Sequence record: OQ626344
Length of the DNA stretch: 64,000 nucleotides
Strand: one strand, 5' to 3'
From: Escherichia phage S127 BCL3
Shown here piece after piece: positions 24,196 through 24,348 of this stretch; positions within the stretch are counted from its first letter, which is position 1; the number at the start of each line of letters is the position of its first letter. A program made the position numbers and the translations under genes. The notes beneath the pieces are model-generated. The model was not told the origin of the DNA. It worked only from the letters and a program-made list of their open reading frames with translations, and ran no database searches.

Positions 24196-24214
24196 GAGAA
24201 CGGTTATCATTATC
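24196..24214. promoter_or_regulatory. Fur-box-like site A
   Basis: The reverse complement GATAATGATAACCGTTCTC matches 16/19 of the classical Fur box GATAATGATAATCATTATC. Confidence 0.5.
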
Positions 24215-24239
24215 ATTTAAAAATTTATGCAAAAAATCC

Positions 24240-24270
24240 TTGCTTTCTTTGTCCTGTGTGATACTATAAT
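24240..24270 (+). promoter_or_regulatory. rightward sigma70-like promoter P2
   Basis: Perfect TATAAT (24265-24270); TTGCTT lies 19 nt upstream, which is a sub-optimal spacing. Confidence 0.45.
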
Positions 24271-24278
24271 AACAAGCC

Positions 24279-24318
24279 GGGGCAACAGGGGCCGGGAGAC
24301 AATCACCGGGGGTGCCCG
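24279..24318 (+). repeat. hairpin motif copy B (core GGGAGACAATCACCGG)
   Basis: GGGCAAC/GGTGCCC outer stem (one mismatch); CCGG/CCGG inner stem. Confidence 0.65.
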
Positions 24319-24333
24319 TTATTCTGCAAACGA

Positions 24334-24348
24334 GAATGATTATCATTC
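24334..24348. promoter_or_regulatory. Fur-box-like perfect palindrome B
   Basis: GAATGAT-T-ATCATTC is a perfect 7-1-7 palindrome. It contains AATGAT-n-ATCATT, the central 13 bp of the Fur consensus. Confidence 0.55.

Follow-up and report, generated by a model that had tools for sequence, protein, structure and literature searches.

Candidate operators for the host regulator Fur in conserved untranslated DNA of an rV5-like coliphage

Fur boxes are well known from the iron regulons of bacteria, and a few toxin and transporter genes on temperate phages have them too. Here we describe boxes of this type on the DNA of Escherichia phage S127 BCL3, in a stretch of 64,000 nucleotides from record OQ626344 that was analysed as a whole and that we call the window. 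A preliminary description of this DNA had proposed two near-consensus Fur boxes, sites A and B, between positions 24196 and 24348 and downstream of two antisense promoters. Scored as Fur boxes, both sites are at the top of the range for genuine E. coli operators. From sequence comparisons we consider it, on balance, probable that the two sites are operators for host Fur, selected on the phage DNA and set in conserved arrays 3′ of promoter-proximal hairpins. A coupling of the locus to host iron status is plausible, and lytic phages may use Fur on their own DNA.

Site A, read on the minus strand at 24196–24214, is GATAATGATAACCGTTCTC and agrees with the classical consensus GATAATGATAATCATTATC at 16 of 19 positions, as had been claimed for it. 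It is the sole match with three mismatches or fewer on either strand of the 64 kb; dinucleotide shuffles predict 0.03 such matches, and only three of 100 shuffles gave any. Site A is not a palindrome. Site B (24334–24348, GAATGAT-T-ATCATTC) is indeed the perfect 7-1-7 palindrome that had been described, contains the central part AATGATnATCATT of the consensus and, in the classical 19-bp frame (24332–24350), matches 15 of the 19 positions. As a reference set we used 12 Fur-regulated promoter regions of E. coli K-12 (fepA-fes, fepD-entS, fepB-entC, fhuA, fecA, fecI, feoA, ryhB, cirA, fiu, tonB and exbB), whose best 19-mers agree with the same consensus at 12–16 positions (median 14).

The same 12 promoters were used to train a symmetric 9-1-9 weight matrix in the single-dimer frame AATGATAAT-n-ATTATCATT (Chen et al. 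2007, PMC2189734). With the full matrix site B (24329–24347 in this frame, 25.0 bits) and site A (24193–24211, 23.4 bits) are the two top hits in the window. Leave-one-out matrices give 24.8 bits for site B and 23.3 bits for site A, against 11.5–24.1 bits (median 18.75) for the genuine promoters. Scoring against a random background, a check that had been suggested at the outset, shows four hits of at least 18 bits in the window where first-order Markov simulations predict 0.1. The minus strand of site B, AATGATAATCATTCTCGTT, is identical to the fhuA box at 17 of 19 positions. The GAGAAT/ATTCTC variant that is typical of the phage sites (the ATTCTCATT half-site) is present in the boxes of ryhB, fhuA, exbB, feoA and fepB-entC too.

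The preliminary picture of two boxes is correct in that both are real, and falls short in that they are not isolated. The matrix scan finds six further boxes (at 24199, 24358, 12117, 12135, 12233 and 12251), making eight sites in arrays that are confined to two untranslated regions (Table 1). These regions make up 5% of the window and hold all of the top eight matrix hits (P ~6e-11). The array consensus is a 9-1-9 inverted repeat, AATGAGAAT-n-ATT(C/A)TCATT. One member, the site TGTGAGAATGGTTATCATT at 12251, is identical at 18 of 19 positions to the fecI Fur box of E. coli. In the closest genome, the 136-kb Escherichia phage B9-1, the other 73.5 kb contain a single hit of at least 14 bits, and this is inside a gene.

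The window is, by sequence, from an rV5-like phage (Vequintavirus). The 1.3-kb locus around sites A and B is 89–98% identical to more than 100 rV5-like phages, with B9-1 as the top match (98%). Both sites are inside a gap of about 1.2 kb (approximately 23738–24952) that is gene-free in the B9-1 annotation, and the flanking early genes are all on the minus strand. The second untranslated region (11103–13243, 2.1 kb) is located at the convergence of a plus-strand and a minus-strand block of genes. The genome map in the rV5 paper contains a box labelled 'non-coding', for which no explanation is given and which may be this region. Two small hairpins with identical loops precede the boxes here, in 12060–12106: ACAGG-AGTGCTG-CCTGT at 12060 and CTGG-AGTGCTG-CCAG at 12093. 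We also observe that this box cluster is kept in two rV5-like contigs (L024 and L031), and that a Certrevirus-like contig (L040) has a six-box cluster in a comparable place (3372–3620).

Within the rV5-like phages the boxes are no more conserved than their flanks, in a comparison of five distinct sequences (~90–98% identity), a depth that gives no resolution. In Mydovirus, Seunavirus, Certrevirus, Henunavirus and Phapecoctavirus, whose hosts include Klebsiella, Proteus, Salmonella, Enterobacter, Cronobacter, Pectobacterium, Erwinia and E. coli, only hairpin copy B and box B can still be aligned with the locus by BLAST. The sites are conserved beyond the immediate relatives: in these five genera and Vequintavirus there is a fixed distance of exactly 33 nt from the G of GAGACAA, in the invariant hairpin core (GAGACAAnCACC), to the start of the first box (20–27 bits) downstream, and in all relatives a plus-strand promoter is followed by the hairpin. 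Several of the relatives carry arrays of two to five boxes, often spaced 29 bp apart, like B1 and B2 of the window.

That the boxes lie downstream of both antisense promoters also holds. P1 was found by a promoter scan and points against the surrounding minus-strand genes. P2 has a spacer of 19 bp, which is outside the limits of the scan, and it was therefore read by eye; its positional counterparts, TTGCAA-17-TATATT in Cronobacter phage PBES02 and TTGATC-16-TATTAT in Salmonella phage PVP-SE1, were found by promoter scans. Cluster A is between P1 and P2, and B1 and B2 are between P2 and a set of iteron-like repeats. The boxes are at about +70 from the P1 and P2 starts, and cluster A is some 69 to 75 nt upstream of the P2 start (−69 to −75). 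In PVP-SE1, PBES02 and anhysbys the plus strand carries the promoters that surround the boxes. In PVP-SE1, EC152 and the Mydovirus phages a further plus-strand promoter follows 16–18 bp after the last box, with the box centre at about −62.

Table 1. Features of the window that are discussed in the text (box scores are from the full Fur matrix)
Feature	Positions	Strand	Description
Fur-type box cluster A	24193–24217		AATGAGAACGGTTATCATT at 24193–24211, 23.4 bits; overlapping AACGGTTATCATTATCATT at 24199–24217, 17.7 bits, 6 bp further on; contains site A (24196–24214)
Fur-type box B1	24329–24350		AACGAGAATGATTATCATT at 24329–24347, 25.0 bits, best hit of the window; contains the palindrome 24334–24348
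Fur-type box B2	24358–24376		AATGAGAACTTTTCGCATT, 15.4 bits; 29 bp after B1; repeat family D5
Second-region Fur-type boxes	12117–12153		AATGGGAATACTTCTCATT at 12117, 14.9 bits; TTTTATAATAATTCTCAAA at 12135, 14.0 bits; repeat family D9
Second-region Fur-type boxes	12233–12269		AATGAGAATACCTATCATT at 12233, 18.8 bits; TGTGAGAATGGTTATCATT at 12251, 19.7 bits
P1, sigma70-type promoter	24096–24124	+	TTGACA-17-CACAAT, with TG before the −10; 10/12 matches in the promoter scan
P2, second rightward promoter	24240–24270	+	TTGCTT at 24240–24245, then TGtGATACTATAAT ending at 24270; read from the sequence
RNA hairpin copy A	24138–24190	+	Core GGAGACAACCACCG at 24161–24174; partial covariance match 24158–24180, 14.4 bits; minimum free energy −20.1 kcal/mol
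RNA hairpin copy B	24273–24324	+	Core GGAGACAATCACCG at 24295–24308; covariance model 38.2 bits, E = 1e-7
RNA hairpin copy C	14926–14977	−	Core at 14940–14953; covariance model 22.2 bits; own promoter TTGTAA-16-TATACT at 15010–14983
Iteron-like direct repeats	24465–24645		Units of 47–55 nt around GAAAACGAAAAACAGATCGAGTACT; families D1 and D3; downstream of P1/P2

Each of the three hairpins is about 50 nt long and G+C-rich, begins a few bases after a sigma70 promoter, and has the invariant apical core GGAGACAAnCACCG. The hairpin is conserved in the six genera and in unclassified viral contigs, and the covariance model that detects it in the window was built from the other genera. On the promoter strand the outer stem pairs at 84%, many of the pairs being G-U, and its co-variation is weak (29 of 500 shuffles reach it). 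RNAalifold run on the MAFFT alignment returned no structure. Folding energies do not settle the strand significantly: the promoter strand gives the more stable fold in 15 of 23 copies (P = 0.15). The hairpin is not in Rfam, as no match with E ≤1 was found in 20000–30000 of the window or in seven related loci. A leader, a put-like element or a seed-bearing RNA are possible roles for it. Copy C is not followed by a Fur-type box; a second promoter (14905–14877) comes after it and then a gene.

The terminator scan found no plus-strand terminators, and the U-tracts after the hairpins are weak. Since the hairpins lack a convincing U-tract, transcripts from P1 and P2 should continue through the boxes. 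The arrangement differs from that of a small RNA locus repressed by Fur in the manner of RyhB, in that the boxes are 3′ of the hairpins and no plus-strand terminator is present; at ryhB the Fur box is within a short region upstream of the gene. The iteron-like repeats, together with further repeats at 24814–24915 (AAAATCCATTT), fill the rest of the untranslated region that is reached by P1 and P2. The iteron-like repeats contain no DnaA boxes. Analogous repeats, built around TCGATCGAGAACC, are present in the other genera.

The preliminary description considered that the coupling of a non-coding phage locus to host iron status would be unusual for a virulent phage. Boxes of this type are probably not rare in virulent phages. 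The exact palindrome AATGAGAATnATTCTCATT is found in at least 120 contigs of IMG/VR, as is the canonical AATGATAATnATTATCATT (both counts are lower bounds); a scrambled palindrome of matched composition is found in four. A set of 117 palindrome loci falls into 36 unrelated sequence clusters with G+C contents of 27–65%. In these viral contigs the box centre has two preferred positions relative to strong sigma70-like promoters, a peak at +13/+14 (14 observed, 1.1 expected) and another at −61 to −80 (17 observed, 2.6 expected); against consensus sigma70 promoters the second preference is for −64 to −77. The contigs with a box at the promoter start have no BLAST match among isolate phages, and PHROGs gives generic hits only. 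The layout TTGACA-17-TAAAAT-CGGCGCC-box is recurrent among the contigs (e.g. L065, L079, L080, L081 and L114).

Six of the palindrome contigs are T5-like. In T5 itself (AY587007) the boxes cluster tightly at 9473–9636, next to nick 1, and reach 27.1 bits. The best of these is AATGAGAATCATTATCATT at 9577, and the sites at 9473 and 9612 (21.9 bits) each have an overlapping site at +6. In the T5 annotation they are the copies of 'direct repeat C' and the palindromes E, G, H and I, all in the untranslated region of the injection stop. No hit of 15 bits or more was found in 50 kb of T5 early genes (12001–62000). The T5 pre-early proteins have no homologue in the window.

Is it the DNA or an RNA copy of the box that is conserved? 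The palindromes could form hairpins in the transcripts from P1 and P2 that serve for termination, processing or stabilisation, with an accidental likeness to a Fur box. The boxes would be transcribed if P1 and P2 are active, and each perfect copy could form a 9-bp AU-rich hairpin. Moreover, some copies in the uncultivated contigs are at the extreme 5′ end of predicted transcripts, and in this wider set the flanks 2–4 nt outside the box are mildly more complementary than expected by chance, so the boxes may have a hairpin role in some lineages. However, the half-sites of the Vequintavirinae-type boxes differ from each other without compensation. Only one half-site pair, 6/14, varies among 29 distinct strong boxes; it is complementary in 31% of them, where 46% is expected, and its commonest combination (G/A) joins one GAGAAT half to one GATAAT half. 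Given this deficit, and given that site A is not palindromic, pairing is not what is conserved; the sequence of the half-sites is, as for a dimeric DNA-binding protein. Nor do the boxes have a U-tract or a plus-strand terminator in the scan, and an RNA hairpin would not hold its primary sequence across contigs of 27–65% G+C. Since the half-sites do not co-vary, we read the boxes as DNA sites for a protein, and we consider an RNA role for the boxes of the window to be the most improbable of the explanations discussed here. Only a little less improbable is that the boxes need no factor, and are decoys for RNA polymerase, bent or AT-rich structural DNA, or a small mobile palindrome. TTCTCA does resemble a −35 element and GAGAAT or GATAAT a −10 element, and a scan picks TTCTCA-18-AATAAT across two adjacent boxes; the same sequence is present in unrelated contigs, and the 29-bp tandem units could stem from duplication. 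However, the spacing from TTCTCA to GAGAAT within the arrays is 15 bp, which is poor for sigma70. Spread alone also leaves unexplained why the box keeps its place after the hairpin in six genera, why the boxes of a 136-kb genome are confined to two of its untranslated regions, and why they are nearly identical to the consensus of a single host regulator.

Which protein binds the boxes is a harder question. The scores, the conservation and the lack of RNA-type co-variation all speak for Fur boxes, yet several observations weigh against Fur itself. In classical Fur repression the −35, −10 or +1 of a promoter is covered by the box; unlike this arrangement, the boxes of the window overlap no conserved promoter at these elements. 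A minus-strand promoter over box B (ATGAAA-17-TAGAAT), which could have provided a classical target, is weak and has no counterpart in Mydovirus or Certrevirus. Overlapping sites at an offset of 6 bp, which are typical of Fur clusters, score 17.7 bits at A and 11.1 bits at B, but across 28 strong phage boxes they do not rise above the autocorrelation of the motif. The 29-bp spacing of the arrays is regular, and to our knowledge this is not a feature of Fur sites. The phage boxes favour GAGAAT (G 56%) and the E. coli sites favour GATAAT (T 56%), a preference that is not a known trait of Fur and could be the mark of a different protein. The correlation between a matrix of the phage boxes and the Fur matrix is high (r = 0.96) and partly circular, as the Fur matrix picked the sites. 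Finally, in some uncultivated contigs the box covers +4 to +22 of several consensus promoters, which fits a phage repressor of early shut-off at least as well as Fur. The original view of the sites thus survives as to the kind of box, and not as to two isolated sites in the position of a classical repressor operator.

The alternative, which the preliminary description had also raised, is that the boxes are operators for a phage-encoded DNA-binding protein that has no detectable homology to Fur and has evolved, or converged on, a Fur-like specificity, e.g. a regulator of early-transcription shut-off or anti-termination, with any binding of Fur being incidental or competing. The consistent preference for GAGAAT would be its signature, regular 29-bp arrays resemble the site arrays of phage regulators, and the place around the start, occupied at many consensus promoters in some contigs, is the natural one for a shut-off repressor. 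In addition, the boxes of the window avoid the classical Fur position, and early promoters that Fur can repress seem costly in iron-replete hosts. On the other hand, the phage consensus agrees with the single-dimer Fur consensus at 16 of 18 positions, a coincidence that is very unlikely (~1e-4 per half-site). The motif recurs in no fewer than 36 unrelated clusters; rV5-like and T5-like phages are among its carriers and have no protein in common in these regions. E. coli Fur was the tblastn query in a search of 50,697 phage records for a phage-encoded Fur, and no homologue was found in a Vequintavirinae or T5-like genome. A neighbouring small plus-strand open reading frame, which encodes DUF7170 in Seunavirus and Mydovirus, was considered as the regulator and rejected, as it has no homologue at this place in the window. 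At such scores, moreover, abundant host Fur should bind with or without a phage protein. A motif that is common to unrelated phages without a shared local protein, and that matches one conserved host regulator at 16 of 18 positions, indicates a host protein; we therefore regard a phage-encoded regulator as possible but unlikely.

Assuming that host Fur is the protein, a role can be sketched; that Fur rather than another protein binds, that it acts as a barrier and that it does so in an iron-dependent way are all points that we infer. The boxes would act as double-stranded DNA. In an iron-replete cell, Fur-Fe2+ dimers would occupy cluster A, in the interval between P1 and P2, and B1 and B2, in the interval between P2 and the repeats. 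RNA polymerase would run into the dimers, bound at about +50 to +90, shortly after the emergence of the hairpin. The most likely effect would be that of a roadblock or insulator between the tandem rightward promoters, with rightward antisense non-coding transcription stopped or thinned some 50–70 nt from its start. Plentiful iron would then yield short hairpin RNAs and shield the next promoter and the repeat region from read-through, and Fur without iron would allow longer transcripts that read into the repeats. A second, compatible role would be the nucleation of a nucleoprotein complex on a cis-acting untranslated region; we consider Fur as an architectural protein here because the same boxes are found in the T5 injection-stop region. 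The position of a box at −62 to −75 from the next promoter would also permit a role as upstream activator or anti-silencer.

A broader proposal can be made from the T5 boxes, which we offer tentatively and think improbable as a whole. Virulent phages of at least two unrelated families, the rV5-like phages with their allied myoviruses and the T5-like siphoviruses, would have recruited Fur as a cis-acting cofactor on the untranslated DNA that controls them. The palindromes of T5 'direct repeat C' would be Fur operators, with the rV5-type arrays as their counterpart, and Fur occupancy, and with it the iron status of the host, would gate an early step such as DNA entry, a switch in early transcription or access to the repeat region.

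Other readings of the locus were tried and set aside. A minus-strand open reading frame of 94 amino acids (24062–24346, equivalent to rV5 ORF198) spans both boxes. We treated it as probably spurious on the basis of annotations: its equivalent is unannotated in B9-1, which is 98% identical, and no gene is annotated over the block in other genera. In Klebsiella phage K45PH128C2 (OY978796.1) the segment 1420–1573 is annotated as tRNA-Ile and tRNA-Met. ARAGORN finds no tRNA there or in the window, and these annotations, which cover the block of promoter, hairpin and box, are probably errors. A replication origin is possible but unsupported, as the window has no cluster of DnaA boxes: four matches to TTWTNCACA are found in the 64 kb where 8.3 are expected, one of them at 11689 (in 11103–13243), with no pair or cluster and none near the boxes. 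The skew analysis in the rV5 paper follows changes in the direction of transcription only. Several records begin near the locus, which raised the idea of a genome terminus; the two ends of the EC152 record share no sequence, and this line was uninformative.

Some further observations concern the surroundings of the boxes. The spacer of P1 holds a GC-rich motif, GGCCCCGCCAGGT (repeat family D2). A G+C-rich motif with a CCWGG (Dcm) site, GCCCCGCCAGGT or CCTGCCAGGCGG, is located at 23861–23877, 24027–24057 and 24104–24120, and on the minus strand at 14905–14877; it thus recurs in the untranslated region, in the P1 spacer and in that of the promoter that follows hairpin copy C. Promoters of an unrelated contig (L114) have a similar spacer motif, GCCAGGCGG. 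This motif may be the site of a phage regulator. Genera other than Vequintavirus have a conserved G+C-rich element of about 90 nt, …ACGCCACCCCACGGCGAAAAGGCGGGGCTAACGTACCGGG…GGTGGATCGCCGGTAG…, with its own plus-strand promoter, some 200–100 nt upstream of the hairpin. This element (e.g. 1330–1420 of L009; loci L003–L011) is absent from the window and has no match in Rfam. Lastly, 16–17 records named 'Campylobacter phage' (e.g. MG065654, MG065662 and MG065682) are 93–96% identical to the coliphage locus. Their host labels are probably wrong, or the samples contaminated.

Literature searches found nothing that links Fur boxes to rV5-like or other virulent or lytic phages, and no transcriptome of an rV5-like phage. 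Boxes of the Fur type therefore appear not to have been described before as a conserved core element of non-coding control DNA in virulent phages, which would be a new context for a known kind of site. The rV5-like phages are widely used in the biocontrol of E. coli O157 and in therapy cocktails. If Fur does bind, these phages would read the iron status of their host, which bears on their efficacy in iron-poor sites of infection and in the iron-rich gut. The factor that arrests T5 DNA at its injection stop signal, sought for 50 years, would also have a concrete candidate, and a function could be assigned to a palindrome of at least 120 uncultivated viral contigs. Should the binding protein instead be one of the phage, the boxes would be the sites of a widespread regulator of Fur-like specificity, with a possible action on the iron regulon of the host as well.

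How do the boxes compare with known systems? With the chromosomal Fur operators of E. coli (fhuA, fecI, ryhB, exbB and fepB-entC) they share the 9-1-9 dyad and the half-sites ATTCTCATT and ATTATCATT. They differ in being off-promoter, at about +70 from one promoter and −70 from the next, in their 29-bp arrays and their preference for GAGAAT, and in that they lie in the untranslated DNA of a virulent phage, away from any iron-related gene. The stx1 gene of lambdoid phages is a Fur-regulated cargo gene of temperate phages. Another case is sitABCD, which is carried with an upstream Fur box by lambda-like coliphages (PMC6969025). The likeness to these is a Fur box on phage DNA that ties phage-borne transcription to host iron; however, the boxes of stx1 and sitABCD are ordinary promoter operators of prophage accessory genes, whereas those of the virulent rV5-like phages follow the promoters of non-coding RNAs and belong to the conserved core of the untranslated regions.

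Host DNA-binding proteins are known as cofactors at cis-acting sites of phages, e.g. IHF at attP and cos of lambda, and proteins of the LacI type can be roadblocks to transcription. The likeness here is by analogy, in that an abundant host protein on non-coding phage DNA would shape a complex or stop RNA polymerase; we know of no report of Fur in either capacity on phage DNA. A further parallel is with the T5 injection-stop region. A published analysis of that region discusses DnaA boxes and never Fur (Davison, bioRxiv 10.1101/866236). The T5 region is in the terminal repeat. It differs from the regions of the window in that it has paired DnaA boxes and no GAGACAAnCACC hairpin. What the two share is the build of the region: Untranslated Repeat Region 3 of T5 (9468–10409) has a cluster of AAATGAGAAT…CATT boxes (21.9–27.1 bits) in long conserved untranslated DNA, followed by direct repeats, and 23738–24952 and 11103–13243 of the window are likewise long conserved untranslated regions in which palindromes of the AAATGAGAAT type are followed by arrays of direct repeats.

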